From a virus: a DNA stretch of 64,000 bases. The notes beneath the pieces were generated by a model, which saw nothing but the letters and a program-made list of their open reading frames with translations, made no database searches and was not told the DNA's origin. The position numbers and the translations under genes are program-made. The stretch spans positions 8,984 through 72,983 of IMG/VR virus record IMGVR_UViG_3300042934_000519; one strand, given 5' to 3'. Positions 22,807 through 53,990 of the stretch are shown piece after piece; position 1 is the first letter of the stretch, and each line of letters starts with the position of its first letter.

Positions 22807-23657
22807 TATGTGAAAAGCGAGCAGTAACCCCTTAACTAAGGACAGTCAATGTTCTCAACCAACGGGGTGTTCTCTCTCCTTCGTAAGATCGTGTCGCAGA
22901 TTCGCTGTCAGGTTAGACTGACCCGAGTCTTGGCACGGTTAAACCGGGAGAGGGCCCCTTCGGCGCCAAAGACGCTAATGCTGCGTGGGACGCAGTCACG
23001 CCACGACCATAAGGCGGTCGGTTAGGCGTCGGCTGCGACGAGATTAGAAAATCTTACAGCTTAATGAGGGGGTCGCGCTCCTCTAAGGATGGAAATTGGG
23101 GTTTACCGCAATCATCTGCGGGTTAATGCTGTACTGCAACACGGCCGTGAGCGATCTGTCTTTCAGACCGGCTGCACGCCCGGAGATTCCGTTAGTGATA
23201 GCTGCTCGCGATTTGTCGCTGGTAGCTGTAAACGCCTTCGTGCCCGCGCTTCACCCGTACAGTCCGCCCTACCAGGCTGACTCTGGGACGATGGCCCCAC
23301 TGACGAACATGCACAGTCCAGCGTTGCTAATGCAGATGAGTACTACGGTCGTACCACGCCCAGGGTTCCAGACCCTGTAAGCCACTGGAACGATCGGAGT
23401 GCACACACATAGCTGCACCCGTGAGCGGATTGAGTTCCGTACTTGATGTAAGAGGCAGTTGTCTCTCATTGGCAAGCACGTGTGTCAGGCTCGAAGACTG
23501 CGGTTGGGTCTAATCGCTGCGATTACCCTAGGATCAGATCTTCCCCTGCACCCTTGTCAAGATGCTAAACAATGATCCGCCACCCCTTCACGATTCCACT
23601 TCCTAGTCGCACTGGGCAGCCGAGAATCATAAGGGGCGGCGTTCATTCCTTTATGCC
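22807..23657 (+). ncRNA. Candidate large structured non-coding RNA (~840 nt)
   Basis: No credible CDS in a gene-dense genome; TATG at 22807; more than 12 hairpins; terminal long stem plus TATGCCG. Confidence 0.7.
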
Positions 23658-23699
23658 GTGATCTTATGTACGCTTTCTTTTTTCTTTGGGTATGCTGAC

Positions 23700-24143
23700 A
23701 TGAGTACGGTAGAAGCAGTGGATGCTCCAGTTCCTTTGGTGGAACTGATCAACGGTAAATTCAGCTATTTCGACACGCGTCGTGTTGATAAGCACAACCA
23801 CTCAATGCTTAACCCTTTCCGTCGACTCGACGAAGTGGTCGGTGACATTCAGGTTCCCCAGTGGAACGTGACTGACTTCGCCTCCATTAACACCCTCCGA
23901 GATTTAGGTCTGTTCATTATCTTTGCCTTGCTGGCAGGGTACGGTGATCAGTCCGCCACCATCCACGACTACCTCTACGGCGGTGGTCTTCCTGTCAGCG
24001 GTCAAGTGATCTATCGCAAAGACGCTGATGACATCTATTACCGTGCCCTACGAGCTGAAGGTGTGGCTCGCTGGCGTGCCGGTATCTTCTACGCGGGTGT
24101 TCGCCTCTTTGGGGCTTCCCGTTGGAAAGGAGCCGTTCAATGA
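23700..24143 (+). CDS. DUF1353 family protein
   Basis: TDFASI, HDYLY, RKDADDIY...YAGVRLFG motifs. Confidence 0.85.
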   Translation: MSTVEAVDAPVPLVELINGKFSYFDTRRVDKHNHSMLNPFRRLDEVVGDIQVPQWNVTDFASINTLRDLGLFIIFALLAGYGDQSATIHDYLYGGGLPVSGQVIYRKDADDIYYRALRAEGVARWRAGIFYAGVRLFGASRWKGAVQ

Positions 24144-24436
24144 GTGCACCCCTGTTTACCGTCCACAGTTCGTTGGCGGCCATCCCCGGTGACAAAGGCA
24201 AGTGGCTGGAGTCGTACCGTCTGGCGGACCACATGCTGATCCTGATGGAGTGCTGGCGTAAAGTGCCTGCCACCCAATTGGTCGGTGATGAGTTCCAAGC
24301 GGTCAAAGGCATGCTCAGCTTCATCATGGCTTCCTCCGGTACGCACCTTGATGCTGTCCTGACGGCTCAGTCCATGGAAGAGCTGTTTGCCATCCAGAAA
24401 GAGTTCCAAGCCATTTGCAAGTCCCGCTGCACATAG
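24140..24436 (+). CDS. Hypothetical protein
   Basis: ATGA overlap; terminator hairpin at 24440-24463. Confidence 0.65.
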   Translation: MSAPLFTVHSSLAAIPGDKGKWLESYRLADHMLILMECWRKVPATQLVGDEFQAVKGMLSFIMASSGTHLDAVLTAQSMEELFAIQKEFQAICKSRCT

Positions 24437-24476
24437 CCACCAGGAGTCCTCCGGGACTCCTGGTCTATGCCGGGTG

Positions 24477-24568
24477 TTCGATTCGAAAAGATTACGGCAA
24501 TACATTAATAGCGTGAATAAGGAGAATGATCTTCTTATCTTAACCTTAGTCTTTGGAGATTTACCATG
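24477..24568 (+). repeat. Conserved early promoter/leader, copy A
   Basis: TTCGATTCGAAA..TTACGGCAATACATT..GTGAATA-hairpin-..TTGGAGAT..ATG; similar to 29264 and 50025. Confidence 0.85.
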
Positions 24569-25267
24569 TCTGTTACTACCTGCGTATTGAACACCGCTTT
24601 GACCGCTGTTGGCTTGGGTCGTTTCCGTCAAGTGAAACTGATACCGGTCACCGAACCTGTGGTTGAAGCTGCCCAGCCAGACGAAGTCATCAAGGACATC
24701 TTGAAGGCGCCGATCCCTGCTGCTGTGGCTGAAGTGCTGGAGAAAGGTGCCAGCAAAAGCGATGTGGTTAAAACCATTCCTGCCGTACTGCGCGCTGTTG
24801 TGCAGCAGAAGGATGCGATTGACCATGCTTTGACTGACGACACCGCTGCTCGTAAAGGCGTGACCGTCACCGTGATTGACGACAGCCAAATCCCTGCTGA
24901 CGTTGGTTCAACGAACGCTGAAGTGATCATTGCAGGCCCTCGGTCGACTGAGTTGTACGCAGCCGCTCAAGAAGCCATGTTCTGGGATAACTTCATCGAG
25001 AAACTGGCTCAACGTAAAGTGCTGGATTTCCACTCGGCTTTGTCGCTGATTGAACATCAGGCAACCTTGGGTAAAGGGTACTCGGCTGTAAACTGTAAAG
25101 AAGTCAGCGAGCATATGGGGATTGTGCATGTGACCAAAGCCGGTCTTAATGCGCTGTTCCCATTGGACGACGGCACTTACCGCGTCGTCAGCAACAACAA
25201 ACGTTTCAACGGAGAAGCGTTTGTCTCAGTAGCGGCTGCCAAGGGTTTCCTGAACGGCCGCTACTAA
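24566..25267 (+). CDS. Hypothetical early protein
   Basis: First gene of cassette A. Confidence 0.75.
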   Translation: MSVTTCVLNTALTAVGLGRFRQVKLIPVTEPVVEAAQPDEVIKDILKAPIPAAVAEVLEKGASKSDVVKTIPAVLRAVVQQKDAIDHALTDDTAARKGVTVTVIDDSQIPADVGSTNAEVIIAGPRSTELYAAAQEAMFWDNFIEKLAQRKVLDFHSALSLIEHQATLGKGYSAVNCKEVSEHMGIVHVTKAGLNALFPLDDGTYRVVSNNKRFNGEAFVSVAAAKGFLNGRY

Positions 25268-25331
25268 GCAATACCGTTGTGCAATACTAACCCACGCGGC
25301 TTATAGGGCCGCACACTAGAAAGGACTTACC

Positions 25332-25700
25332 ATGCAACCGTTCAAACAAGCTGTCTACTCCTCCCGCACTGCTGACAAGTTCGTTGTGCGCCTGCCTGAT
25401 GGCATGCGTGAGCGGATTCAGGAAGTGGCGAAGGGGAACCACCGTTCGATGAACAGCGAGATCATCGCTCGTTTGGAGAAGAGTCTGGATGCCCCAGAAC
25501 AAGAGAACGGCACGGTGGAAATCGACGGCGAAGGCGTCCTGTGGAATCCTTGCACGGGTATGTTGGTGAAGACCCCAGCCGGTATCGGGGCGATCCAAGG
25601 TGTCCATTACTCGGACACCAGCATCGACACTATCATGGTCATGGTAGATGGTGCGTCTTACCCGCTCAATGACATCAAGCCTATCTGGTTGAAGTCCTAA
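25332..25700 (+). CDS. amrZ: Arc/ribbon-helix-helix protein with AmrZ (AlgZ)-like N-terminal domain
   Basis: [36 protein letters not shown] closely matches Pseudomonas AmrZ; C-terminus unrelated. Confidence 0.85.
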
Positions 25701-25753
25701 CGGCATAGACAGGGGACCTTCGGGTCCCCTGTCCTTGTTTCTTTTTTCTTTGG
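25701..25753. terminator. Bidirectional terminator, cassette A right end
   Basis: CGGCATAGAC-hairpin-TTTCTTTTTTCTTTGG. Confidence 0.85.
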
Positions 25754-26302
25754 TCAGAACTTGAAATCCAGCGCTTGTCCCACAGGGAACTGGAAGGCAG
25801 TCTCCATGAGGTAGGTCAGATACGTGTGGTCGTTAGCGGAGATGTACCCGCCACCTGTGCCCACGTAAATGCACCGTTTACCATTGAGCATGCCATCACG
25901 GGCCAGCTTCGCCGGGTCAACGTTACCAAAGAACTGGAACGACACCCAACGCCATTCAGTGCCAGTACCTGCTACGGGGTCACTGCCCGATTCGATCCCA
26001 CGGAGTTCGTAGCTGACGCCACCGATCACCACTGACGGCATGGTCACGCTGCCTTGACTGACAGGTCCCGGTGTACCCACCGCCGGTCCTTGGCCAGCAC
26101 GTGTAAACGATCGGCGTTCAACACTGCCATTGACAGAACTGGCCAGTGTGACCTGACCGCCCTTAGCCACGTAAGGGGGTTTCCAGACCTTCCAGACACC
26201 TTGGACGTTCACCCACGCTTGTTCGATGTCTTTCCAGACACCCGCTACCCTGACCAGCGGGACAGATTCACGAATCGCCCCTGCTACTTTGACCTTCTGC
26301 AT
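25754..26302 (-). CDS. Putative tail/receptor-binding accessory protein
   Basis: N-terminal VxGVWK repeats, Gly-rich beta content. Confidence 0.55.
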   Translation of the reverse strand: MQKVKVAGAIRESVPLVRVAGVWKDIEQAWVNVQGVWKVWKPPYVAKGGQVTLASSVNGSVERRSFTRAGQGPAVGTPGPVSQGSVTMPSVVIGGVSYELRGIESGSDPVAGTGTEWRWVSFQFFGNVDPAKLARDGMLNGKRCIYVGTGGGYISANDHTYLTYLMETAFQFPVGQALDFKF

Positions 26303-26314
26303 CGTGACCTCTCA

Positions 26315-26782
26315 TTACCAATCATGGGCGCGGTGTGTACGGTTGACGACTTTGACCTTCTTGCGACCGAGCCACTGGGCAATGTCGATCTTCTCTTTGT
26401 GAAGGATCGAATCCCGGATGGTTTCCTTGGTCTTGTACTCGTCCTTCATGCCATTGTGCTTGTTGTTCACAGGTCGCCAACGACCATCGTGCTGGATGGT
26501 GTACAGCCAGACGTCCAGCTTGAACAGGTCTGCCGTCACCGGGATGCGTCCTGTGGCGATCTCGATGATGATCAGGTCCCCATCGGACTTGTAGCGGTCC
26601 AGGTTGTAATGCTTCTCCAGTACCGAGGCAAACCCTTGGGCAATGGCTTCTTCCTTGGAGGCAGTGCTGTAGAGCCACTCATTGGATTCGGTCTCATCCC
26701 ATTGGACAAGCTTTCCAGAGTGCTTGAAACCCGGCATCAGCTCGGTCTGATCGTAACCAGAGCCGTGGTAAAGGTTCATCAT
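26315..26782 (-). CDS. Conserved hypothetical protein
   Basis: LYHGS..ELMPGF N-terminus. Confidence 0.7.
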   Translation of the reverse strand: MMNLYHGSGYDQTELMPGFKHSGKLVQWDETESNEWLYSTASKEEAIAQGFASVLEKHYNLDRYKSDGDLIIIEIATGRIPVTADLFKLDVWLYTIQHDGRWRPVNNKHNGMKDEYKTKETIRDSILHKEKIDIAQWLGRKKVKVVNRTHRAHDW

Positions 26783-26846
26783 GGGTTCACCTGCGTTAAA
26801 ATTGAAAGGATGTCATTATGTTGTAGTAAACGAATGAGTCATCCCG

Positions 26847-27356
26847 ATGAAAAAGCTGTTGATCTTTCATACACAGTCTTTGTTCAGTGCCAATGACTTA
26901 GAGAACTACCTATACGATACCGGGGCCACCAGGGACAGCTACTTGGACATGGAGCCTGTGACACAGGTGTCAGGGAAGCTAAAAGCAACACATTGGCATT
27001 ACAGCGAATGGGACATTGCCGGTAAGGATGGAGAGGAAGGCGTTGATCTCTGGTATATGGGCTGGGCAGGTGGAGAAAAGTTTGTCTTCGACGACCCCTA
27101 CCTGATGAAGCTCTTTGCTTTCGAAAAGGCATTTCGCGGCCCTAAAGCTCAATGTATGTCCGCGATCTGGAAGGACTATTTTACCTACGCAACATACCGA
27201 ATTGATAAAGAGCTGTCAGCCATACTGAGCATCGTACTGGCAGATCTGTTGGAGCATGTAGATAATGAAACATATACTGTCGATGTTGCAGCTGCTATGG
27301 GTCTATCAGTGGACTACTTGGCGGAAGAAGACACCCCAGCCAAAGAAAAAGGTTGA
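26847..27356 (+). CDS. Hypothetical protein
   Basis: 169-aa ORF divergent from 26782. Confidence 0.65.
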   Translation: MKKLLIFHTQSLFSANDLENYLYDTGATRDSYLDMEPVTQVSGKLKATHWHYSEWDIAGKDGEEGVDLWYMGWAGGEKFVFDDPYLMKLFAFEKAFRGPKAQCMSAIWKDYFTYATYRIDKELSAILSIVLADLLEHVDNETYTVDVAAAMGLSVDYLAEEDTPAKEKG

Positions 27357-27960
27357 GCCTTACTTCGAGGACGGGGTGGAGGAGAAGATCAAGCAGCAAC
27401 TGGCTGACCGTATCAAGTTGCTCGACGGGCTTATGGCTGAAACCGTCTCCTACCTGACCAACACCATGTTCTGGCTGATTGAAGCCAACGGCAGTGTGGA
27501 CAAAGGCAAACCGGCTGATGTCTTGCTGCGCGAAGTGAACCTGATGTTCGTGGACAACATGGTGCAGTCATACGGTCTAGTCCCGGCGGATGAACACATC
27601 TTGCGGTCCAAGGTCATCGACCTGCTCCGGCAGAACGCCATTCGCATGGAGCTGAAGAAGTTCCAAGGCAAAGAGAAGTCGCTGTTCAACATCCACACCT
27701 TTGTGGTGCGCAACGAAGGGATTGACGACGATCCCAACTACGTGCATCAAGTGGATAAGTTCTCGTTCACCGCAGGCATGGGCGTTAAGGAATGGGCTCG
27801 CTACTCGGTGCTTGAACAGCAGGAGATCCGGGACTTTATCTTTGATGTCTATTACGGCGCTGGTGATCAAACCACCACCATGGACATCAAACTCAGTAAC
27901 GAACGCTTCACCTGTGCCTTTCCCCTTAAACGCAGTGTTGTCCAGGAAGAACTCCCATGA
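27265..27960 (+). CDS. Hypothetical protein (start uncertain)
   Basis: ORF with phage codon bias; overlaps previous gene. Confidence 0.6.
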   Translation: MKHILSMLQLLWVYQWTTWRKKTPQPKKKVEPYFEDGVEEKIKQQLADRIKLLDGLMAETVSYLTNTMFWLIEANGSVDKGKPADVLLREVNLMFVDNMVQSYGLVPADEHILRSKVIDLLRQNAIRMELKKFQGKEKSLFNIHTFVVRNEGIDDDPNYVHQVDKFSFTAGMGVKEWARYSVLEQQEIRDFIFDVYYGAGDQTTTMDIKLSNERFTCAFPLKRSVVQEELP

Positions 27961-28355
27961 GTGTTGACCACGCCGAACGCATTGCCATGTTGCCGCCTCA
28001 GCAACGGGCCACTATCACCAACAACTACGGCCAGATGGACGTGGTGCTGCAAACCGCCCGTACCTTGCACAGCGAGTACGTGGTGTCGATCATCACGGGG
28101 CGTCCTGAGCATGACAAGTCCTATTGGTTGGAAATCCTCAACCAGAGCGACGTCATGTACCACGAGTTCGACACGCGTCTGCACACACTGGCTGAGGTGG
28201 TCGCTAAGACCCTCTGCAAGCGCACTGACGACAAGTTTGGCCGTGGGATGCCCTACGTGACGCTGTTGGTGCAATCGCTGGCCATGGGTGCTGCTACGGG
28301 CAGTGAGAAGTTTGCTTACCTCGTGGGCGGACAGGTCATTCCGTACGAAGCGTAA
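27957..28355 (+). CDS. Hypothetical protein
   Basis: ATGA overlap; terminator 28356-28385 with TATGCCG. Confidence 0.7.
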   Translation: MSVDHAERIAMLPPQQRATITNNYGQMDVVLQTARTLHSEYVVSIITGRPEHDKSYWLEILNQSDVMYHEFDTRLHTLAEVVAKTLCKRTDDKFGRGMPYVTLLVQSLAMGAATGSEKFAYLVGGQVIPYEA

Positions 28356-28417
28356 GGAGGAGGGCTTCGGCCCTCCTTTATGCCGTCTACTATGAAATAC
28401 ACTATCGAGTATTAACC

Positions 28418-28957
28418 ATGGGCTATATAACCGCGATCCGTGCTTTCTTTAGCGGTGCACTGGGCAAACTGGCATTGGTTGGTTTGGCTGTTGCACTGTT
28501 AGCTGGCACCGTTTACTACATCATTGACTTGAACACTCAGCTGACCACTGCTCAAGACGAAGCCAAGGACTGGAAGAAGAAGTTCGAAGGCGTGGACCTG
28601 ACCGTCAAGACCACGGACGACGAGCAGAAAAAGGTCACGGAAACCTTCACCGGCATCGATGCCAAAAGCGTAGACCTGTTGTGCATGGCCCGCTACGGCA
28701 ACCTACTGCCCAACTTCAACCAGAGTCCTGTCGTTCCAGCAGAGCCTCAGATCAAGGAAGTCATCAAGTACGTGGCGAGCAAACCACTGGTGTCGCCTGT
28801 CATCCCTGCCACTACGCCTTTGACCCCTTCCGACCTCACTGCCAAGAACAGCCAAGCGCTGTCCGATGAGATCCGGGTATCCGTGTTGAACAACTCGTGG
28901 AAAGCCTATTGCGCTGTGACAGGCAATAAGGACGACACCTGCGCCCCCTTTCGTTAA
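28418..28957 (+). CDS. Putative inner-membrane spanin (Rz-like)
   Basis: N-terminal TM, coiled segment, C-terminal Cys; followed by a lipoprotein gene. Confidence 0.65.
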   Translation: MGYITAIRAFFSGALGKLALVGLAVALLAGTVYYIIDLNTQLTTAQDEAKDWKKKFEGVDLTVKTTDDEQKKVTETFTGIDAKSVDLLCMARYGNLLPNFNQSPVVPAEPQIKEVIKYVASKPLVSPVIPATTPLTPSDLTAKNSQALSDEIRVSVLNNSWKAYCAVTGNKDDTCAPFR

Positions 28958-28966
28958 GGAACCCTC

Positions 28967-29215
28967 ATGAAAATCATCCTTGCAGTCTTGCTGCTCTGTG
29001 TGGCCACCACGTTGGCTGGGTGTAACCGTGGCGTGATCATGGTCCCTGAATGTGAGTACGGTCAGCCCCCTGATCCGGTTGCTTACCTCAAAGGCAACCC
29101 GGATGAGAACTTGGTCCTGATGAGTGCCGCGTATAACGATGGTCTGCGCAAGGCCAGTACGTGCAACGCCAACATCACCAAGATCAATGCCAAGAACAAA
29201 GCGCTCTTCGAATAA
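28967..29215 (+). CDS. Putative outer-membrane spanin lipoprotein (Rz1-like)
   Basis: Lipobox LAGC, Pro-rich segment, CNA motif. Confidence 0.7.
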   Translation: MKIILAVLLLCVATTLAGCNRGVIMVPECEYGQPPDPVAYLKGNPDENLVLMSAAYNDGLRKASTCNANITKINAKNKALFE

Positions 29216-29263
29216 GTCCAGTGCCACCAGCCTTTTACGGGGCTGGTGGCACTGTGCTATTTA

Positions 29264-29355
29264 TTCAATTCGAAAATATCATGGCAATACATTGTAGTGA
29301 TGAGTAAGGAGAACAATCTACTTACCTTAACCTTATCGTCGGAGATTACCCCATG
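29264..29355 (+). repeat. Conserved early promoter/leader, copy B
   Basis: TTCAATTCGAAA..ATGGCAATACATT..hairpin..GGAGATT..ATG. Confidence 0.8.
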
Positions 29356-29991
29356 AACATGCCTACCATCCCTACCGTTCACAACACCATCGACACTCAA
29401 GCCATCGTTGACGCTGTGCGCGCTAACGGCTTCAAAGCGCTGGACGATCACCACAACGGTCGTAAAGAAATGCAACTGGACGGCGTTGCAGTACTGTGGC
29501 GTGACGAGAAACAAACCGTTGTGGCCTTGTTCACCAAGACCTTCAGCGATTATTACACCATCAACGAAATCCGTGTCGACGAAGACGGCATCCCGCACGT
29601 GACTCGCAATGCCTGCGGCGGCACCATCTTCAACGCCACTGACGACGTCCATGCTGACGTCAAAGCCAATCGTGCTGATTACGATTGGAAGCTGATCGAG
29701 AAAATGCCTGCTCTGCATCCAGGTTGGTTGGTGAACATCGTCACTCCCAAAGACGAGTACAACGATTTCATCGGCACTGAGATGTACGTCGAACATGCTC
29801 TGTCTGGCCTGCAACTGCGCATCAACACCAGCAAGCACCTCGACGCTGGCATCGCGACTCTGGACTCGGAAGAGTTCCGTAGCCGTCTGGACGTCGTCAA
29901 AGGCTTGAAAGAAGCGTGGCAAGTAGAGCCTACCAAGGCTAAAGCTGTACTGCTCAAGAAAGCCTGCGAAGAAGCTCGCTGCCTGCTGTAA
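29353..29991 (+). CDS. Hypothetical early protein
   Basis: Cassette B gene 1. Confidence 0.75.
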   Translation: MNMPTIPTVHNTIDTQAIVDAVRANGFKALDDHHNGRKEMQLDGVAVLWRDEKQTVVALFTKTFSDYYTINEIRVDEDGIPHVTRNACGGTIFNATDDVHADVKANRADYDWKLIEKMPALHPGWLVNIVTPKDEYNDFIGTEMYVEHALSGLQLRINTSKHLDAGIATLDSEEFRSRLDVVKGLKEAWQVEPTKAKAVLLKKACEEARCLL

Positions 29992-30030
29992 CCTGCAACA
30001 CCCTAACCATTGATCTATTAGGAGATCACA

Positions 30031-30687
30031 ATGCATTACGAAGTCGCTGTATCGCAACAAGACCTCACCGAGTTCACTTACAACACCAAAGAGGTTCATG
30101 CCAACCTGTACATCAGCCAGTTGCCCACTTACGAGGAAACAATTGGCTACGAGATCCGCGGGCATGTGGCGGTGATCAAGTTCGAAGAAACAGAGGGCGA
30201 CCGTATCACCTACGGTAACCCTTCCTACACGCTGCAAGCGGTTTCCCAAGTGATTGCGCTGGCCTGTGTTCTGCACAAGGTCAAGCACTTTCAACTGGGC
30301 GCTTCAGTACACACCATCCACGTGGCAGTCAACGACCCGCAAGGCGCGTTCATTGCTAAACAGGGTCAGCCGGGTGTGGGCATCATCAAGCACCAAGTCA
30401 ATGGCTTGGTGTTCAAAGAAGAAGGCAACTTCTTCATGGCGTTGGAAGGCGGCATGGTGTGCTCGTTGTACGTTGACAGAATGGGCACCTCACTCGGCCT
30501 CCAGCTGATTGACAGAACTTTCCTCATTCGTTTTGAAGTTGAGGGTAAGTTCCATTATTACCCAATGGCCCTTGTGTTTACTGACCCGGTGGTACGTTCC
30601 TCGTACCTTAAACCATCAGACCCTTTCTTTGACTGGGACAGTAAGCGTGAAGAAATTGAACAGTTTGTTGAGGAATGGACAAAATGA
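30031..30687 (+). CDS. Hypothetical early protein
   Basis: AGGAG SD. Confidence 0.75.
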   Translation: MHYEVAVSQQDLTEFTYNTKEVHANLYISQLPTYEETIGYEIRGHVAVIKFEETEGDRITYGNPSYTLQAVSQVIALACVLHKVKHFQLGASVHTIHVAVNDPQGAFIAKQGQPGVGIIKHQVNGLVFKEEGNFFMALEGGMVCSLYVDRMGTSLGLQLIDRTFLIRFEVEGKFHYYPMALVFTDPVVRSSYLKPSDPFFDWDSKREEIEQFVEEWTK

Positions 30688-30986
30688 CTACTACCGTTGA
30701 CGTGCACCATCACGAAGGTGTGCTGTTCCAAAAGGTTGCCGCTGAGACTGGCATTACTTACGTCGCTGTCGACCCGGCTGAAATCAAGCACATGGACCGG
30801 CGCCTGCTGGTCCGCCACGGCGACCCTGAGAAGGGCAGCTGCGGCTACTACCCAGCGTGGCTGCTGGTGGCGGGTGATGAGACCCGCAAGCGTATCGCTC
30901 AAGAGAAAGGCAAACGTCCACCGCATCACTCGTGGATCATTGGCAAAATCATGTCCCTGACTGCGTCGGGGGCACAGTTCCTCTAA
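30675..30986 (+). CDS. Hypothetical protein
   Basis: Overlapping start (30675 or 30684). Confidence 0.65.
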   Translation: MDKMTTTVDVHHHEGVLFQKVAAETGITYVAVDPAEIKHMDRRLLVRHGDPEKGSCGYYPAWLLVAGDETRKRIAQEKGKRPPHHSWIIGKIMSLTASGAQFL

Positions 30987-31023
30987 GCTTCATCCCTAAC
31001 CTTGATCATTGGAGATCACCGCT

Positions 31024-31434
31024 ATGTCGTTCCTTAAAGCTGCTGTATCCGTTGCTGCTGTTGCTGGCGTAGGCTTTCTCGGCTACAAAATCTGCAAGTC
31101 CAAGAAAGTCCGCAAGGCTGCTGCCATCGCTGTTCAAGTGATGGCAGCTCCTTCGCCTGCTCCGCGTCCTACCTACCACGAACCCGTGCGCCCTGTGGCC
31201 ACTGTCGTGGTGACTGAAACCGAAACCTCCGTCAAGGCTGACAAGTCCAAGATGGAAGGTGTCATGGGCGTTGCTGCTCATGTCAAAGCCCAACCTGTCA
31301 AAGTACACGTACGTGCTTCGGCCCGTACTACCGAAATCGAAGTAGAACGTACCACTGCTGCCAACCTGAAACCCCTCTCCGATAAAGAGATGGAAAACAA
31401 GTTCGGCTTCAGCGGCGCTACTCTGCCTCAGTGA
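31024..31434 (+). CDS. Membrane-anchored early protein
   Basis: AAVSVAAVAGVGFLGY followed by KICKSKKVRK. Confidence 0.7.
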   Translation: MSFLKAAVSVAAVAGVGFLGYKICKSKKVRKAAAIAVQVMAAPSPAPRPTYHEPVRPVATVVVTETETSVKADKSKMEGVMGVAAHVKAQPVKVHVRASARTTEIEVERTTAANLKPLSDKEMENKFGFSGATLPQ

Positions 31435-31483
31435 TCCATCAACCCTTGCAACACAACCCTTACCTAACCTCAGGAAGTTACTC

Positions 31484-32782
31484 ATGTCTACTAAACTCTT
31501 CAACGAAGATGGCACCATTGTAATCCGTCACGTCAGCGACGCTAATGTGACCGATCATGTCCCGGCTCACGTGTATCGTTTGCGCGAACACCCGATGAGC
31601 AGCGATCTGTACCTGGTGCCTGATCGCCTGAAGTTCGACGTCCCGGCCAAGTTCTACGGTCGGCACAATACCCACAAGCAAGAGATCCTCACTGCTTACA
31701 ACAAGCACGAAGGTTCGGTGGGTGTTCTGCTGCGCGGTATTAAAGGCGCGGGCAAGTCGGCGTTGGCAGAAGACCTGTGCAACACGGTCCTGGAAAAGTA
31801 CCTGCCGGTACTGTTTGTTGACCGTCCGTTCTCCCCCGCAGTGCTGCAACGTGTGACCACCCAAATGGGCCCATGCGTGGTGTACTTCGATGAGTTCGGC
31901 AAAGTGTACGGCGCTAAGGAACGCCGCGACCTGCTGACCTACTTCTCGGACTCCTCGTTCAAGAAGGTGATGTTCATCGTCACCAGCAACAGTAAGAAAG
32001 AACTCGACAAGTACATGATCGACCGTCCGGGTCGTTTCCTGTTCCGCATCGACTTCAAAGCACTGGACCCACTGGCCATCATCGAGATGATTGACGACCA
32101 CGGGTTGAAAGGCGAAATGGCTCAGATGATGAACGCCTACGTGAATAACAACACGGTGACGTTCGACATGCTGCGCTTCTTGATGCCGATCGCGGTGGAA
32201 GCAGGGAACTACATGGAATTCAATCGCCGGATCGAAATCCTGAACTGCCCGCCGCCGGTCTACCCTCACCTGACCCCGACCAAGGTCATCTTCCAAGGCG
32301 AACCGTTCTACGGCTACGTCAAGCTGGGTGTGTCTCCGGGCATGAAGTTCACCATTGAACTGAAAACCGAAACCGACCCTGAGCCGCTCTACAAGGGCGA
32401 GTTCGACATGAACACCCGTAACCAGGTCCTTACCGAGAACTTCCTCGGTGTCGAACGTCAGTTCGTTCTGGAAGGCGACGTGATCGTGTTGGCCCGTGAA
32501 GAATGGCGCAACACTGTGCAAGAAAGCCGTAGCGATCGCTTCCGTGATCCTGCACTGGATGTCAAGCGTGAGGAGGCTCCTCGCGAAATCGGCATGTCGA
32601 TGTCTGACATCATGCACATGGGCGGTATGGGTAGCATGTTCAGAACGCGCTCGGAACTGCTCGGTGGCGGTATGTCGGAAGATCAGAAGAAGCTGTTGGA
32701 ACTGGCAGACTTTATCGTCAAGAACAACAAGCCTGCTGAAACGGCGGCTGTAGAAGAGACTGAAAGCGAAACTGCCAAGTAA
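31484..32782 (+). CDS. AAA+ ATPase
   Basis: Walker A GIKGAGKS, Walker B VYFDEFGK, TSN sensor, DRPGRF arginine finger. Confidence 0.9.
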   Translation: MSTKLFNEDGTIVIRHVSDANVTDHVPAHVYRLREHPMSSDLYLVPDRLKFDVPAKFYGRHNTHKQEILTAYNKHEGSVGVLLRGIKGAGKSALAEDLCNTVLEKYLPVLFVDRPFSPAVLQRVTTQMGPCVVYFDEFGKVYGAKERRDLLTYFSDSSFKKVMFIVTSNSKKELDKYMIDRPGRFLFRIDFKALDPLAIIEMIDDHGLKGEMAQMMNAYVNNNTVTFDMLRFLMPIAVEAGNYMEFNRRIEILNCPPPVYPHLTPTKVIFQGEPFYGYVKLGVSPGMKFTIELKTETDPEPLYKGEFDMNTRNQVLTENFLGVERQFVLEGDVIVLAREEWRNTVQESRSDRFRDPALDVKREEAPREIGMSMSDIMHMGGMGSMFRTRSELLGGGMSEDQKKLLELADFIVKNNKPAETAAVEETESETAK

Positions 32783-32835
32783 CGGCATAGACAGGGAGCC
32801 TCACGGCTCCCTGTCTAGCTTTCTTTTTTCTTTGG
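32783..32835. terminator. Bidirectional terminator, cassette B right end
   Basis: CGGCATAGAC-hairpin-TTTCTTTTTTCTTTGG. Confidence 0.85.
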
Positions 32836-33960
32836 TTACTTGATGGAGCGGTCGAAGTATTTCACCACGGCCACGGCCACTTGGTACTGGTTCAACGAAT
32901 TCATGATGCCCCACGTCCAACTTTCAGGGTCAGACTGGAAGTAGAAGCGTCCGTAGAACTCGTCGTACAGGTTGTTGTCTGCGTCGTAAATCCATTTGGT
33001 GAACCGGCCACCGTCCTTGAAATCCAACCACGGGAACCACAGCAGTTTCATGCTAGGGTCCCAGTCCGGATCAGTCAACATGTCCTTGAGCAGTTTGGCT
33101 GCATACATCGCATCTTTCTTGGCCAGTGCCTGCATTTCTTTAACCGGGGTCGGTTCAGGCGTTGGAACCATGTCGATGCGGTCGTATTTACCCAAGGTAG
33201 GGACTTTGTTGCCCAGACTGGTGGTTTGAATCTTTGGCAGTTTGGACACAGGGCTTGGGATGGCGTTGAGTTCCTCAACTGCTTGGCGCACCACTTCAAG
33301 AGCAGCTTCATCGTCAAGCGGTTTGTTGGCACACGCCATTTCCACACGCTTCTCGATCCCCGCTACTTTGGTGGCAATTGGCTTGAGCACTTGCGCCCAG
33401 GCCTTGCAGAACCCTTCAAGACTCCCCTTCGCCACGTTGATATTCCAGATCGGCGACGTGGTGATGTTGTCGTTGACCAAGAAGTGCTGGTAGATGTCAC
33501 TGGCAGGCACCATGCCCTCCACGAACGTCTGTTTGTCCAGCCACTTCTGGTTCAGGTAGGTCTTTTCCAGTTCAGCCACGAACTTGGCCACCGCTTCACG
33601 GTGCTTTGCGTTGTACTCTTTCTTTTCAGGCAGAGTGCGCGGTTTCTTTCGACCGAAGATGGACAACGACGAGGTCAACATGCCTACCAGCCCTTCAGTG
33701 GACACCTCTTCAATTCCTTGAGTGCCCCCGACTTGCGTCAGCAGGGTAGCGACACTCTGTTGGAGTTCGACGTTGTCTGGGTTGTTCTTGACCACGGTGT
33801 CCGTCATGGCCAATACAGCGTCGAGGGTGGCCTCTTCACGTTTCTCTTCTTCGATCGCACCGGCGATGTCTTCCAGAGAGGACATCAATGTCCGGTACGC
33901 GTTTCGAGATTCGCTGGGCATCGCATCTTCTAATGCGGCGCTTAAGGCAGATAGTCGCAT
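32836..33960 (-). CDS. Virion internal head protein
   Basis: N-terminal ALE, SLE and STE sites matching the phiKZ prohead protease motif (S/A/G-X-E). Confidence 0.65.
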   Translation of the reverse strand: MRLSALSAALEDAMPSESRNAYRTLMSSLEDIAGAIEEEKREEATLDAVLAMTDTVVKNNPDNVELQQSVATLLTQVGGTQGIEEVSTEGLVGMLTSSLSIFGRKKPRTLPEKKEYNAKHREAVAKFVAELEKTYLNQKWLDKQTFVEGMVPASDIYQHFLVNDNITTSPIWNINVAKGSLEGFCKAWAQVLKPIATKVAGIEKRVEMACANKPLDDEAALEVVRQAVEELNAIPSPVSKLPKIQTTSLGNKVPTLGKYDRIDMVPTPEPTPVKEMQALAKKDAMYAAKLLKDMLTDPDWDPSMKLLWFPWLDFKDGGRFTKWIYDADNNLYDEFYGRFYFQSDPESWTWGIMNSLNQYQVAVAVVKYFDRSIK

Positions 33961-33962
33961 GA

Positions 33963-36068
33963 TTACGGCTCGTCTTCTGGTGGGGTAGGTTCTGCCACGT
34001 CAATCGGCAACTGCTCACGCAGCTGTTCGATAAACGCTTCAGCATTGGTGATCGTGGCGATCGAGTTGTCGACCAAGTCTTCCAGCGAGGCTTCCACATC
34101 GTCCGGAGTCTTCACCCCCAGGATGGTTTCCACCGTTTCCTTGGACCATTGCAGGATGTCCTTGGAGCGCGTGGAGATGTTTGGTGCTTCGCCAGTATCA
34201 AGGAAGATGTCGTGCACATGGCAGCGCTGCTTCTGACCGATACGGTCCACACGAGCCACCGTCTGCGTCCGCTCGTAATCACGGAACGGGGAGTTGGTGA
34301 ACGCCAGTGTATTGGCCACCGTCAGAGGCACAGCCGTTGACAACGACTTGAAGGTCGCCACCAGAGGGTTGGCATCTGGGTCATCGTGGAACTTCTTGAT
34401 GATCGCAGGCAAGTCCTTGTTGGTTTCCCCGTAGACGAAGAGCGGCTTGTACCCCGCTTGCACCAACAACACTTCCAAGGCTTTGACCACTTCCACGTAA
34501 CTGGTAAAGATCACCGTCTTGCTCAAGGCATTGTCGATGATGTCTTCCAGCGGCATGTTGGCGAGCATGTCCAAGTGACACTGAATGCGCATCCGACCCA
34601 AGACCTGCGACAGCGCTTCGCCCAGCACCTTCAGTTCCACGTACTTGATGATCGCTCGCACGTTCAAGAACGGCTTGCGGTACTGCTCGGGGAGAGAAGG
34701 CACAATGTTCTTCAGCTCGTACCGGTTGCAGTACATCACCATGTCTTTCATGGTCACAGGATCGTAACCACGGCGGATCTGCTTGATGTAGCCTTTATAC
34801 ATCTCGAAGTCTTTGTTCTGCTGGGGTGAGCCACGGGCAATGGACTTCTGGTGCAGTTCCATGCAGGTGTCGTACAGCTTCATGTACTCCGGCATGCCCT
34901 TCTGGTAGAACTTGAGCTGCTCGGCGATGAAGTTGGTCATCTTGGTGCGGATCGAGTCCAAGGTGTAGTCAGCACCGTTAGGGATCTTCACCGTGACCGT
35001 GTGGTAATCCACGCCGGGTGTTTCAATGTCTTGTTTGAGCACCTTAAAGGACAGGATACCGATTCGGTTGGCCAGAATCTCCAGCGAACGCTTGGCCTCC
35101 TTACCGAACATCTTGCGGAACGCTTCACGGGCTTCAGGGGTGAAGTCATCGCAGAGCGTGGTCAGCAAGGTGATCGCTTCAGAGCCCATGGCCTTAAGCG
35201 GTGTACCCGAAGCATGCACCACGTCTTTGCACTGAAGTGTCCGGCACAGGTCGATCAGGTGGGCTGAGCGTTGGCTGGACTCTTCGTTGAAGTTGTGCGA
35301 TTCGTCGATGTCGATGAACGACTTACCAAACGAGCGAGGATTGGCCTTGACGAACTTGAGGAACTTCTCCAAGTAGTCGTAGTGCACGATGTAGATCTTC
35401 TTGCCCAGCACTGGTTCAGTACCGTGCATGGACGACCAGTAATCCGGGATACCCGACTTGAAGAAGAACTTGCCACCGAAGACCGGGGACTCCTTTGCAA
35501 TGGTTTTCTCCCAGACATCCACAGCCGCGTTCTTGGGACAGATGAAGATCTGAGTGTCCGCATTCAGACACAAGCCCAGTGCGTACCCGGTGATCGTCTT
35601 ACCGCCACCTGCGGCCACGTCCATGAGCATCCCATTGAGGGAATACTCCTGCGTCACGCGGTCGTAGTTATGTAAAAAATTGTCTTGGTGGGCAAATAGT
35701 GTGACGTTAAGTTCCTTAAGCCGGGAGAAATCCAGCTTTGACTTAAAATCACTGGAGCCTATTTTCTTGAGCCATGTATGAAGGCGTATCTCTTCAATGG
35801 TCTTAAGGAGGATGCGACGGGGTACTGACGTTCGGCGACTTTCGAGCAACCGTTCCAGCATGTACAACACTTCGATTGCAAAGAACCGAGGACACTTGAT
35901 CTGGGACTTGGTAATAGAAGAGAACATGTTGGTGTTGATCTTACTGGTTTTCCAGTAATTATACACGTCTCGACTGAATCGCAGCCCAGGGATACCATTC
36001 ACTATAATGTGAGAATCCGTTTCTTTAACAGACACGAACCCAACGAGTCGTGCAACACTACCGTACAT
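33963..36068 (-). CDS. SF2 (SNF2/DEAD-like) helicase, probably virion-associated
   Basis: AGGGKT, DESH, SGTP, QTVARVDRIGQ motifs; C-terminal ASLE site. Confidence 0.88.
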   Translation of the reverse strand: MYGSVARLVGFVSVKETDSHIIVNGIPGLRFSRDVYNYWKTSKINTNMFSSITKSQIKCPRFFAIEVLYMLERLLESRRTSVPRRILLKTIEEIRLHTWLKKIGSSDFKSKLDFSRLKELNVTLFAHQDNFLHNYDRVTQEYSLNGMLMDVAAGGGKTITGYALGLCLNADTQIFICPKNAAVDVWEKTIAKESPVFGGKFFFKSGIPDYWSSMHGTEPVLGKKIYIVHYDYLEKFLKFVKANPRSFGKSFIDIDESHNFNEESSQRSAHLIDLCRTLQCKDVVHASGTPLKAMGSEAITLLTTLCDDFTPEAREAFRKMFGKEAKRSLEILANRIGILSFKVLKQDIETPGVDYHTVTVKIPNGADYTLDSIRTKMTNFIAEQLKFYQKGMPEYMKLYDTCMELHQKSIARGSPQQNKDFEMYKGYIKQIRRGYDPVTMKDMVMYCNRYELKNIVPSLPEQYRKPFLNVRAIIKYVELKVLGEALSQVLGRMRIQCHLDMLANMPLEDIIDNALSKTVIFTSYVEVVKALEVLLVQAGYKPLFVYGETNKDLPAIIKKFHDDPDANPLVATFKSLSTAVPLTVANTLAFTNSPFRDYERTQTVARVDRIGQKQRCHVHDIFLDTGEAPNISTRSKDILQWSKETVETILGVKTPDDVEASLEDLVDNSIATITNAEAFIEQLREQLPIDVAEPTPPEDEP

Positions 36069-36117
36069 TGTTCTATTCCTTAATAACTAGGGAATCAGGA
36101 TAAAAGAGGATCATAAG

Positions 36118-37224
36118 ATGACTCAAGTTAACAAGGCAGCCGGTGGCAGCGTCCACCAGCAGCACGCCGAGGTGGTCAAGTTTCGTTCCAGCTTGGAAGC
36201 GTTGATGGTTGCCGGACGCGAGTTCCTGGGCAATCCGTCACTGGAAGATTCCCAGGCTGTGGCATTCACCACGCTGACAGAAGACGTTCTGGAGCCAGCC
36301 GGTCTGGACGAAGAACTCAAAAAGATCGACGGTGTGGCGGACCCTGCTTCCAAGATCGAACTGATCATGCAGGACATCATCCAGCCTCAGCTGACCACCG
36401 TGGCCAAACTCGAAGAGCACCTTGCTCAGAAAGCCGAAGGCCAAGTCGATGAGCCGTTCACCACCCGTGACCAGATGACTGCTGCGCCGTCGTTTGAATC
36501 GATCGTGGTCGAGCGTGATGAGCTACGCCTGTTCTCTCACGGCCTGCACTCGCTCAAGGTCATGGCATCGATGGAAGGCGTCACTGCGGACCACATGCGT
36601 CCTATGCTGAGCCACTTCCTGCGCCAAGTGCCGGACATCACCGCCCAACTGAACATCTCCATTGAAAACATGGAAGAGACTCAGGTGCTGGGCGAGATGA
36701 CTGAAGCCGTTGACCGCATGACCGCGGTGGTTGAGAACGCTCGTACCTTGGCTGAAACCCAAGTCAACGACGCTCGTGGCCAGAACGCTCAGATCGAAAC
36801 CGACAACGCCACTGACTGGACCGAGAACCTGTTGGCCAAAGTCGAGAGCACCAAGCAATCGGGCGCTGTGTTGGACGACGACGTCAAAGTCTCCAGCACT
36901 CCATCTGACGGCACTGTGGCTTCGACCGACACCACTGGTTCCACTGACATGGAAGTGGACGAGACCGGTATTGACGGCGGTGAGGCAGGTGAAGCAGAAG
37001 CACTGGCAGCCGATGCTGCTGTGGCTGATGCAGACGCTGCGGCGGCTGAAGTCGATGCCAACACCGACACCGGTGCAGGCACTGGCGATGACGCTGGCAA
37101 GTCGTTGGGTGAAAACGCTGACGAGTTGAAAGACAACGTCGAAGAGCCTGAACTCGATGACGACGGTAACCCGATCGTCAAAGAAGAAGAGCAGGAAGAA
37201 GAAGAGGAAGAAGAGGTCAAGTGA
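36118..37224 (+). CDS. Acidic virion/head protein
   Basis: Multiple SxE sites (SLE, SFE, SME, SIE); highly acidic C-terminus. Confidence 0.65.
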   Translation: MTQVNKAAGGSVHQQHAEVVKFRSSLEALMVAGREFLGNPSLEDSQAVAFTTLTEDVLEPAGLDEELKKIDGVADPASKIELIMQDIIQPQLTTVAKLEEHLAQKAEGQVDEPFTTRDQMTAAPSFESIVVERDELRLFSHGLHSLKVMASMEGVTADHMRPMLSHFLRQVPDITAQLNISIENMEETQVLGEMTEAVDRMTAVVENARTLAETQVNDARGQNAQIETDNATDWTENLLAKVESTKQSGAVLDDDVKVSSTPSDGTVASTDTTGSTDMEVDETGIDGGEAGEAEALAADAAVADADAAAAEVDANTDTGAGTGDDAGKSLGENADELKDNVEEPELDDDGNPIVKEEEQEEEEEEEVK

Positions 37225-37256
37225 CCTAGTCTTTTAAAACTGTGTCTCTACCATTA

Positions 37257-37703
37257 TATGTAGGAAACACGCTCTTTAAGAAACTGTTCTCCAACCAAAC
37301 GCCACTGGCGTAACTAGGACGCTTCCATCGAGTCGCGTTCGGCTGCTCTTAATGGCAGCCCCAGAAGGACTAGGGGGCCTTAGGGTCCCCTCTTCCACTA
37401 TTTTGTTGCAGCCCCATGAACTCGTCGTGATAGTGGGGTTTTGAGGGATAGTTCCATACGACCCAGGTGAGTCCGCCTTAGACTCTACCGCACCCTGGTG
37501 CTCGTGTGGTAAACGATGAAGCGTTGATGGTTTTGCCTCCGCATCGCTGTGACTAGGTAAGTGCCCGCTCCTCACTTGCTCGGTCAGTGTACAGCCTCTA
37601 GTGTCCACCGGTCCGGCTATAACCGTCTGGTCACTAGGGGATGAACATTGCTCTACAGCACTGAATAGACAGGAGGGCAACCTCCTGTCTTTCTTTTATG
37701 CCG
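37257..37703 (+). ncRNA. Candidate structured non-coding RNA (~430 nt)
   Basis: TATG at 37257, no credible CDS, nested stems, ends in terminator 37667-37690 plus TATGCCG. Confidence 0.7.
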
Positions 37704-37715
37704 TAAGGACCCTTT

Positions 37716-38084
37716 ATGAAATGGTACACCCTCGCCATTCCTCAATGGCGTAAAGCGAAAGCATTGGGGATTGAGACGTTGGACATCACGGTCAAGTCAG
37801 GTGATAAACGCTTTGCCCCGTACGATGAAGTGCTGTGGGCCTACAAGCGCGGTGAGGTGTCTGATGAGGAGTACACCGAGATCTATCGCAGTAAGCTTAC
37901 TAAGTTGCTCCACAGCGATCCTAAGGCCATTGAGGACCTATTGACCGCAGAGGGTGAAGCAAAGGCTGTCATGTGTTACTGCACCGTAGGCAAGTTCTGT
38001 CACCGGCACATCTGGATGGAGTTCATGCAGGATGTCGCAGACGATAACGGTATCCACTTCGAGCACTGTGGGGAAATAGTATGA
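37716..38084 (+). CDS. DUF488-like protein
   Basis: DITVKSG..FAP, Y...Y, CYC..GKFCHR motifs. Confidence 0.65.
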   Translation: MKWYTLAIPQWRKAKALGIETLDITVKSGDKRFAPYDEVLWAYKRGEVSDEEYTEIYRSKLTKLLHSDPKAIEDLLTAEGEAKAVMCYCTVGKFCHRHIWMEFMQDVADDNGIHFEHCGEIV

Positions 38085-49969: not shown

Positions 49970-50024
49970 GGCCCACCCTCACCGGCTACTTAGGCTGGTG
50001 AGGGTGTATGCCGTCTCTTTAAAA

Positions 50025-50116
50025 TTCGATTCGAAATAATTACGGCAATACATTGTCAGGGTGAATAGGAAGAAAGATCTTCTTATCCTTACCCTTGATC
50101 ATTGGAGATCACCATG
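50025..50116 (+). repeat. Conserved early promoter/leader, copy C
   Basis: TTCGATTCGAAA..TTACGGCAATACATT..GTGAATA-hairpin-..TTGGAGATCACCATG. Confidence 0.85.
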
Positions 50117-50879: not shown

Positions 50880-50912
50880 TCCCCCCCCTACCCCGTTCTT
50901 AAGGAGAACACC

Positions 50913-51068
50913 ATGAATACTCTCGCTCAACGTGCTGCAATCGTAGGCGCTGCTGTTGTTGGCGGCGTTGCTTTCGCTTGGATCGGTGCCAAGACCAAGA
51001 ACAAGATTGACAAGATGCGTCGTGACAAAGACGCCATCGCCAAAGCGCAATCCTGCGCTGCCAAGTAA
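50913..51068 (+). CDS. 51-aa membrane peptide
   Basis: AAGGAG SD; MNTLAQRAAIVGAAVVGGVAFAWIGAKTKNK... Confidence 0.7.
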   Translation: MNTLAQRAAIVGAAVVGGVAFAWIGAKTKNKIDKMRRDKDAIAKAQSCAAK

Positions 51069-53870: not shown

Positions 53871-53990
53871 TCGACTTACTGTACCGTTAGTAAATAATGG
53901 TATGTAAAAAATTGCCGTTTCATTGAGCGCCGAAAGCTCGGTGATAAGCAAAACCCGCTGCTCGAGCAGCAAACTCCGGAGAGTAAAACG

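Follow-up and report, generated by a model that had tools for sequence, protein, structure and literature searches.

The sequence analysed here (the window) is a 64-kb stretch of a 72,983-nucleotide (nt) IMG/VR virus record, for which CheckV gives a completeness of 27%. Two of its intergenic regions, which we call locus 1 and locus 2, share a short pyrimidine-rich motif just downstream of a TATG promoter core. A first-pass annotation listed both as candidate non-coding RNAs. We describe what the two loci encode and what the motif may do. The window encodes a major head protein of 761 residues that matches the phiKZ-type family phrog_3231 (1.7e-167). The nearest isolate is Pseudomonas phage pPa_SNUABM_DT01 (DT01), with a capsid identity of 63%; the other 219 matching records are all below 60%. 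Judged from sequence, the window is a piece of a phiKZ-like jumbo phage genome. We infer the host, the late timing and the 5′ ends of the transcripts, as well as the stabilisation and occlusion considered for them below. Sequencing runs searched for this sequence included no RNA run listed as containing it.

Locus 1 (22810 to ~23655) is an mRNA-like late transcript with a ~285-nt leader, a 94-codon gene and a non-coding tail. Its features, including open reading frames (ORFs), are:

22807 to 22810, + strand: TATG late-type promoter core; G22810 is taken as +1, and the core is kept in 6/6 homologues
22839 to 22855, + strand: leader hairpin, with AGGACA at 22839-22844, the loop GUCAA, and UGUUCU at 22850-22855
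22849 to 23025, + strand: sORF1, 58 codons, open in all homologues and without a coding signature
22850 to 22864, + strand: motif copy 1, TGTTCTCAACCAACG
23004 to 23020, + strand: conserved leader hairpin CGACC-AUAAGGC-GGUCG, whose loop is kept and whose stem covaries
23096 to 23380, + strand: ORF2, 94 codons, with a TTG start, AAGGA 6 nt upstream and a hydrophobic N-terminus
23381 to 23660, + strand: non-coding 3′ part of the locus, which ends at TTATGCCGTG

Homologues of locus 1 are syntenic in the related sequences G001, G002, G003 and DT01, and a further one occurs in L201, a close relative of G001 (89% identity). No match was found when a locus 1 homologue was sought in G004. The locus is not simply a non-coding RNA, as had been suggested, for it includes ORF2, a real, fast-evolving protein gene. 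Between G001 and L201 the ORF2 frame has 2, 5 and 13 differences at the three codon positions, and 10 codons with synonymous changes only, against 6 with non-synonymous ones; this is a third-position and synonymous excess. The other two frames have 1-2 synonymous and 15-16 non-synonymous codons. The product in the window aligns by BLASTP with that of G001 across all 94 amino acids (28% identity, E 4e-6), and a hydrophobic N-terminus is found in all five homologues. The start codons are non-canonical in places (CTG in G001; no clear start in G002 and G003), the product has no match in Pfam or PHROG, and the codon-model gene map of the window missed the gene. As a small membrane or secreted protein transcribed late, the product could be related to lysis.

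The 3′ part of locus 1 is non-coding, and close relatives differ there by 1-nt indels. These are found between G001 and L201; in contigs from four DNA sequencing runs, the differences listed include 1-nt indels relative to the window at 23473, 23486, 23496 and 23536 (runs X5 and X6). A permissive E-value scan of locus 1 with Rfam returned nothing. Close-relative contigs also carry replacements. At the end of locus 1 (23590-23631) 40 nt are swapped for 67 other letters, and at 32839-33963 1123 nt are swapped for 718 letters, over the minus-strand gene at 32836-33960.

The stem of the conserved leader hairpin at 23004-23020 reads CAUGC/GCAUG in G003 and CACGG/CCGUG in DT01, with the AUAAGGC loop retained. 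In the form CGCGACC-ATAAGGC-GGTCGTATG, this leader hairpin occurs near letter for letter in unrelated viral contigs of 7-50 kb (L184, L186, L187, L189, L190, L194, L198, L202, and L205), and matches to the hairpin pattern CGACCWTAAGGNGGTCG are mostly in unrelated contigs. The recurrence may reflect an RNA motif of wider distribution, or chance similarity inside a coding region.

The first copy of the motif lies at the start of sORF1, and one explanation is that it matters as coding sequence. AUG UUC UCA ACC AAC would open a translated upstream frame, the passage of ribosomes rather than the peptide would control the leader and ORF2, and the likeness to locus 2 would be coincidental. All five diverged homologues (5/5) have AAGGA, an ATG 5-8 nt further on and an open frame of 58-77 codons that starts at +37 to +46, with a chance of ~0.1 for each, and the two TGTTCTC copies in the leader (the second is at 22868-22874, 18 nt 3′ of motif copy 1) are in frame, 6 codons apart. 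The frame nevertheless shows neither codon-position bias nor a synonymous excess between G001 and L201 (11, 13 and 12 differences at the three positions; 7 synonymous and 19 non-synonymous codons, like the other frames). Its codon score is negative (−0.158, compared with 0.30 ± 0.08 in real genes), the homologous AUG of G001 meets a stop at codon 3, and the copy of the motif at locus 2 has no AUG. Folding also predicts that the ribosome-recruiting Shine-Dalgarno (SD) sequence and the AUG of the frame are paired. We regard control by a translated upstream frame as improbable.

Locus 2 (~37260-37700) is a structured non-coding RNA of ~400-440 nt that is new to Rfam. Its features are:

37257 to 37260, + strand: TATG late-type promoter core; G37260 is taken as +1
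37260 to 37650, + strand: structured RNA body, through a long 3′ hairpin at ~37585-37650
37263 to 37292, + strand: 5′-terminal hairpin, GGAAACA (37263-37269) with UGUU(C)UCC (37285-37292)
37270 to 37282, + strand: box A, CGCTCTTTAAGAA, in the loop of the predicted 5′ hairpin
37285 to 37301, + strand: motif copy 2, TGTTCTCCAACCAAACG
37668 to 37704, + strand: terminator-like hairpin GACAGGAGG-GCAA-CCTCCTGTC followed by TTTCTTTTATGCCGT, adjoining a DUF488 gene

We collected homologues of locus 2 by scanning IMG/VR and JGI metagenomes with sequence patterns and inspecting the matches. Among the matches listed for an initial 15-nt pattern, chance matches predominated, and a metagenome pattern that combined promoter and box A gave 0 matches. 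An IMG/VR search seeded with two upstream-gene proteins found no relatives, and blastn of both locus regions against GenBank phages gave no match; DT01 alone surfaced, with the G003 query. The set used comprises 12 distinct sequences: the window, G001, G002, L213, L096, G003, G004, DT01, L181, L183, L211, and L216. We excluded L182, L209 and L210 as near-duplicates, and L073, L212, L214, L215, and L217 were dropped as false positives.

The structure of the locus 2 RNA is conserved across this set. RNAalifold finds 57 pairs, and compensatory changes occur in 35 of these. When 55 pairs were tested, 95.1% of cells were paired and 34/55 pairs had changed on both sides; 0/500 shuffles reach this level, and controls in which the alignment was slid are 33-53% paired. 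Each of the six frames has a negative codon score, and the homologues share no ORF of at least 30 codons. At gathering thresholds Rfam has 0 matches in the window and in four related loci, and a permissive Rfam scan around locus 2 gave four matches far below threshold, with no plausible family among them. Searched with a covariance model of the core, DT01 gives a match of 129.6 bits, and phiKZ, 201phi2-1, Xoo-sp14 and LucasX give none at E<=0.1. A two-pair covariation of box A with GUGCC(R)CUCC did not extend into a helix and was dropped.

The promoter reads (T)ATG followed by TAG in 11/12 homologues (G002 has TGTG, and L096 TATGCG). Box A has the form G-Y-TCTTT-N-A, is invariant in 12/12 homologues, and is unpaired in the consensus structure. 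Locus 2 lies between a gene for an acidic-tailed 368-residue protein and the DUF488 gene at 37716-38084 (DUF488-N3a match, 1.7e-8), a synteny shared with DT01. In all 12 homologues the structured RNA is directly upstream of a same-strand DUF488-N3a gene. The RNA and this gene may be functionally linked. A preprint on the ParB-CTPase fold (bioRxiv 10.1101/2025.10.10.680097) names DUF488 three times.

The motif itself and its promoter setting are as the first-pass annotation described them. Both loci stand behind a TATG late-type promoter that is conserved in homologues, and the strings are read directly from the sequence: TGTTCTCAACCAACG at 22850-22864 and TGTTCTCCAACCAAACG at 37285-37301, which start 40 nt (locus 1) and 25 nt (locus 2) after the G of TATG. 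TGTTCTC followed by AACCAA, with 0-1 nt between them, has exactly two occurrences in the window and none in 100 dinucleotide shuffles, a comparison made post hoc on a selected string; the remainder of the 72,983-nt record has one further match, at the same site. A fairer comparison counts every run of 13 or more matches that the two regions share when a single 1-nt skip is allowed: 4/3000 shuffles of the two 100-nt leaders do as well but so do 19/300 shuffles of the two whole intergenic regions, and the match is therefore above chance only if the shared 5′-proximal position is accepted as a prior.

The motif is not conserved in its full form. The 13-17-nt string is not retained in the nearest relative, G001. 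In locus 1, the leaders of G001 and L201 have two TGTTCT copies 18 nt apart, as in the window, and do not keep AACCAACG. G002 has AUGUUUG at the place of the motif, and G003 and DT01 have no UGUUCU. In locus 2, G001 reads GCTATCTCCCTGCAT at the place of the motif (GCUAUCUCCCUGCAU vs CUGUUCUCCAACCAA in the window), and distant homologues diverge further. The elements that do recur are shorter: the core UGUUCU in locus 1, and in locus 2 the invariant G-Y-UCUUU box at +11 to +23. The last 3 nt of motif copy 2 open the next small hairpin, ACGCC-ACU-GGCGU (37299-37311).

The two loci had been proposed to form one RNA family, and this is not borne out: neither blastn nor nhmmer profiles cross-match, and locus 1 carries a protein gene. 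With blastn at word size 7, locus 1 against locus 2 gave nothing significant. When run on four genomes, the nhmmer profile of each locus recovers a single locus in every genome, and the other locus does not appear at E<=10.

We propose that in these two unrelated late transcripts the motif supplies the pyrimidine-rich 3′ arm of a small 5′-proximal hairpin, where it would act as an anti-SD sequence in cis. We credit this about as much as we doubt it; it is the best supported reading, yet not secure. The motif had been placed before the first helix, and thermodynamic models put it inside that helix. The pairing is predicted by thermodynamic folding. In each RNA the motif would pair with a purine-rich, SD-like AGGA(A)ACA element 5-16 nt upstream; since this partner lies in its own RNA, the motif would be a cis, not a trans, anti-SD sequence. 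In locus 2 the hairpin would close the 5′ end and present the invariant G-Y-UCUUU box in its loop, thus shielding the end and displaying box A. In locus 1 it would cover AAGGA and the AUG that heads the unconstrained upstream frame.

The predicted leader hairpin of locus 1 spans the SD-like AAGGA and the AUG at 22849, and its 3′ arm is the first 6 nt of the motif. In an ensemble fold the AGGACA:UGUUCU pairs have probabilities of 0.80-1.00 over four transcript lengths, and the hairpin (−4.9 kcal/mol, z −3.13) is equalled in 0/200 shuffles. In the leaders of G002 and DT01, AAGGA and AUG are folded into stems by different sequences.

At locus 2 the GGAAACA:UGUU(C)UCC pairs have probabilities of 0.87-0.99 over four transcript lengths, and the fold also pairs G37260 and U37261 (+1 and +2) with A37294 and C37295. 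From the window to G001 the pair C37268-G37286 becomes U-A: the 5′ arm changes from GGAAACA to GGAAAUA, and the 3′ arm from UGUUCUCC to UAUCUCC. Folding recovers the hairpin again in G001. Other homologues have a different pyrimidine stretch after box A, one that complements their own 5′ end (L096, GCGAAAC/GUUUCCGC; L216, AGGAC/GUUCU; L181 and L183, GGA/UCC). Full-length folds give a probable local 5′ hairpin for the window and likewise for G001, L181 and L183.

The same kind of complementarity (GUUCU:AGAAC) is used locally at the ribosome-binding site (RBS) of gene 50913, in GUUCUU-AAG-GAGAAC. This potential local anti-SD hairpin (50890-50916) is at the RBS of a 51-codon gene at 50913-51068, and the leader is kept in G001 (104456 cassette).

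Several observations weigh against pairing in cis. The hairpin of locus 2 is weak (−5.0 kcal/mol, z −0.77), and 46/200 shuffles equal it. Its stem is backed by a single compensatory event. In full-length folds the 5′ end prefers long-range partners in 5/12 homologues (G003, DT01, L211, L216, and L096), the 5′ purines of G002 and L213 pair with box A itself, and the local hairpin is weak in G004. Duplex energies do not separate cognate from non-cognate 5′ and 3′ arms. At locus 1 the hairpin is impossible in G001 and L201, where AGGA abuts UGUUCU. For the other half of the motif, AACCAA(A)CG, the pairing is only a partial explanation.

The first-pass annotation had proposed a different role, in which the motif is a free anti-SD seed and late RNAs pair in trans with the RBSs of "early cassettes", shutting these genes off. 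The complementarity that prompted this idea is real. TTGGAGATCA at 31009 and 50102 forms 9/10 pairs with the motif (UGUUCUCCAA against UUGGAGAUCA) and GGAGAACA at 50903 forms 8/8. The leader of locus 2 in the window and in G001 has UCUCC, which complements the cassette RBS core GGAGA, and TTGGAGA is enriched in the window (16 vs 8.5 expected). The pairing to 78 start regions is however no better than that of 300 shuffled motifs, whether or not the shuffles preserve the UCUC(C) core. At <=−10 kcal/mol the locus 2 motif reaches 10/78 start regions (shuffle mean 10.6; 54% of the 300 shuffles equal it) and the locus 1 motif 5/78 (shuffle mean 8.0; 82% equal it). A ranking of the motif against all RNA windows by duplex energy was dominated by G+C content and is superseded by the shuffle test.

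Other details speak against the trans model as well. A complement of the full motif or of box A, with <=2 mismatches, is found at no RBS in four genomes. The motif is predicted to be paired (0.80-1.00) and would not be an accessible seed. Motif copy 1 has no CUCC, UCUCC is absent at the place of the motif in 8/12 locus 2 homologues, and the distant ones have no CUCC. G001 keeps GGAGAACA and the GGAGAU RBSs while its locus 2 motif has changed; the RBSs show no matching change, and the change in the motif matches its cis partner. A local pairing partner is present for the RBS at 50903. GGAGAACA at 29308 is not the RBS; it precedes the start codon by 38 nt and is part of a hairpin in the leader. 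The cassette promoters also have AAnnTTAC-like boxes similar to the middle-promoter motif of phiKZ given in PMC4666361, and the label "early" is unproven. We consider silencing in trans very unlikely.

The cassettes (24437-24565, 29216-29352, and 49970-50101) are repeated promoter-leader modules. Each combines two promoter boxes, TACATT and, upstream of it, an AAnnTTAC-like one, with a hairpin in the leader and the ribosome site GGAGAT. Their order is TTCGATTCGAAA..TTAC..GGCAATACATTG.., the leader hairpin, CTTAACC, and the GGAGAT RBS. G001 carries such cassettes at 703, 83477, 104456, 109271, 148337, and at other positions. Given the likeness of the AAnnTTAC box to the phiKZ middle-promoter motif (PMC4666361), the cassettes may be middle rather than early.

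An alternative that draws on the conservation of box A is that UGUUCU and G-Y-UCUUU are one sequence-specific recognition element, present in both leaders. A phage or host protein would bind it, for instance to affect RNA stability, localisation or passage out of the phage compartment, or it would serve the late RNA polymerase as a downstream promoter element, and the box-like copy would have been duplicated or copied between the leaders in the lineage of the window. Besides its invariance in the 12 homologues, box A keeps a fixed distance from TATG and stays unpaired in the consensus. The locus 2 motif of the window looks like a second, tandem, box-like copy after box A, and such a copy is also present in L096 (ACUGUUUCC) and L216 (GAUGUUCUCG). 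The two UGUUCU copies of locus 1 are 18 nt apart in the window as well as in G001 and L201, and the second copy of G001 is in a hairpin loop. TATG[TA][AG] with YGYTCTY within the next 45 nt occurs in the window solely at loci 1 and 2.

Work on phiKZ bears on the same alternative. The late consensus of phiKZ is TATG with the G at +1, and downstream DNA has a ~30-fold effect, with no downstream consensus reported (PMC4666361, PMC12809450). At the late promoter P119L, swapping the segment 3′ of TATG lowered transcription ~30-fold, with no consensus reported for the segment (PMC4666361). The late-type promoters of the window (TATGTA/G) include those at 53901 (the major capsid gene) and 61229 as well as the two loci, and the strong ones at 53901 and 61229 have no box. 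Neither G003 nor DT01 has UGUUCU in its locus 1 leader, conservation is limited to a core of 6 nt, and the binding partner is hypothetical. A shared recognition element is possible, though we hold it doubtful. In a broader version, which we think unlikely, locus 2 founds an undescribed class of ~400-nt structured late RNAs within a clade of phiKZ-like jumbo phages; box A, single-stranded and shown in the loop of a terminal hairpin, is the handle by which a phage factor sorts, exports or stabilises particular late RNAs, and a box-like handle was copied to a second leader that came under common control. Pairing in cis remains our preferred reading of the motif.

A second set of TATG sites in the window follows terminators. 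TATGCCG after terminator hairpins occurs at 17 sites, with 4.3 expected. As TATGCCG(TC) after G+C-rich terminator-like hairpins, it is found on the + strand at 1012, 3520, 8475, 15848, 21147, 23652, 24466, 28379, 37697, 50007, and 56332, and on the − strand at 25701, 32783, 41740, 51656, 56291, and 57522. These sites look like a composite module of terminator and TATG, and the late polymerase possibly re-initiates after each terminator. At 948-1020 the window has TATGTAGAG and then, after ~35 nt, a strong hairpin with TATGCCG. It may mark a late transcript of very small length, or only the terminator of the gene that ends at 923. The next gene seems to start at 1075 behind its own TATGTAAAC.

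For annotation, the consequence is that one stretch flagged as non-coding RNA conceals a fast-evolving gene for 94 residues and the other is a structured RNA outside Rfam. Jumbo phages of this type use their own polymerases, and determinants 3′ of TATG matter yet are undefined. Within the highly structured late RNA of locus 2, the conserved box A (+11 to +23) offers a concrete, testable candidate for a downstream promoter determinant or an RNA-handling signal. Silencing by an anti-SD sequence in trans would have been the more striking outcome had it held, and is unsupported.

The predictions for the two loci can be compared with several known systems. Stem-loops at the 5′ terminus, such as that of the ompA leader, stabilise bacterial and phage RNAs against decay that depends on the 5′ end. 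The predicted hairpin of locus 2 similarly begins at +1 in the window and in G001, but its stem is weak and is not present in all homologues. Hairpins in which a cis anti-SD sequence occludes an RBS are a general class of leader element. The predicted UGUUCU:AGGACA pairing over AAGGA and AUG at locus 1 is of this kind, as is the similar GUUCUU/GAGAAC at the RBS of gene 50913; the differences are that the frame occluded at locus 1 has no coding constraint and that locus 2 has no start codon there.

Small RNAs with C/U-rich seeds pair with SD sequences in trans. The motif is likewise pyrimidine-rich and complementary to GGAG(A), but it is predicted not to be single-stranded, and it shows neither target enrichment over shuffles nor co-variation with targets. 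GOLLD and ROOL are large structured phage-associated non-coding RNAs in Rfam. Locus 2 resembles them in being ~400 nt long, richly structured and phage-borne. It differs in matching no Rfam family, and among the genomes scanned its core model finds DT01-like phages only.

Small RNAs of 201phi2-1 and phiKZ are described in PMC11512511, and none in the available part of that report resembles locus 1 or locus 2. A further parallel is with the late promoters of phiKZ, which are used by its non-virion RNA polymerase (Yakunina et al. 2015, PMC4666361; PMC12809450). The downstream box of the window has no counterpart in the phiKZ consensus given there, and the transcription starts in the window are predicted from sequence. 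As in phiKZ, TATG(T)A stands before both loci, the capsid gene and other late-type genes.

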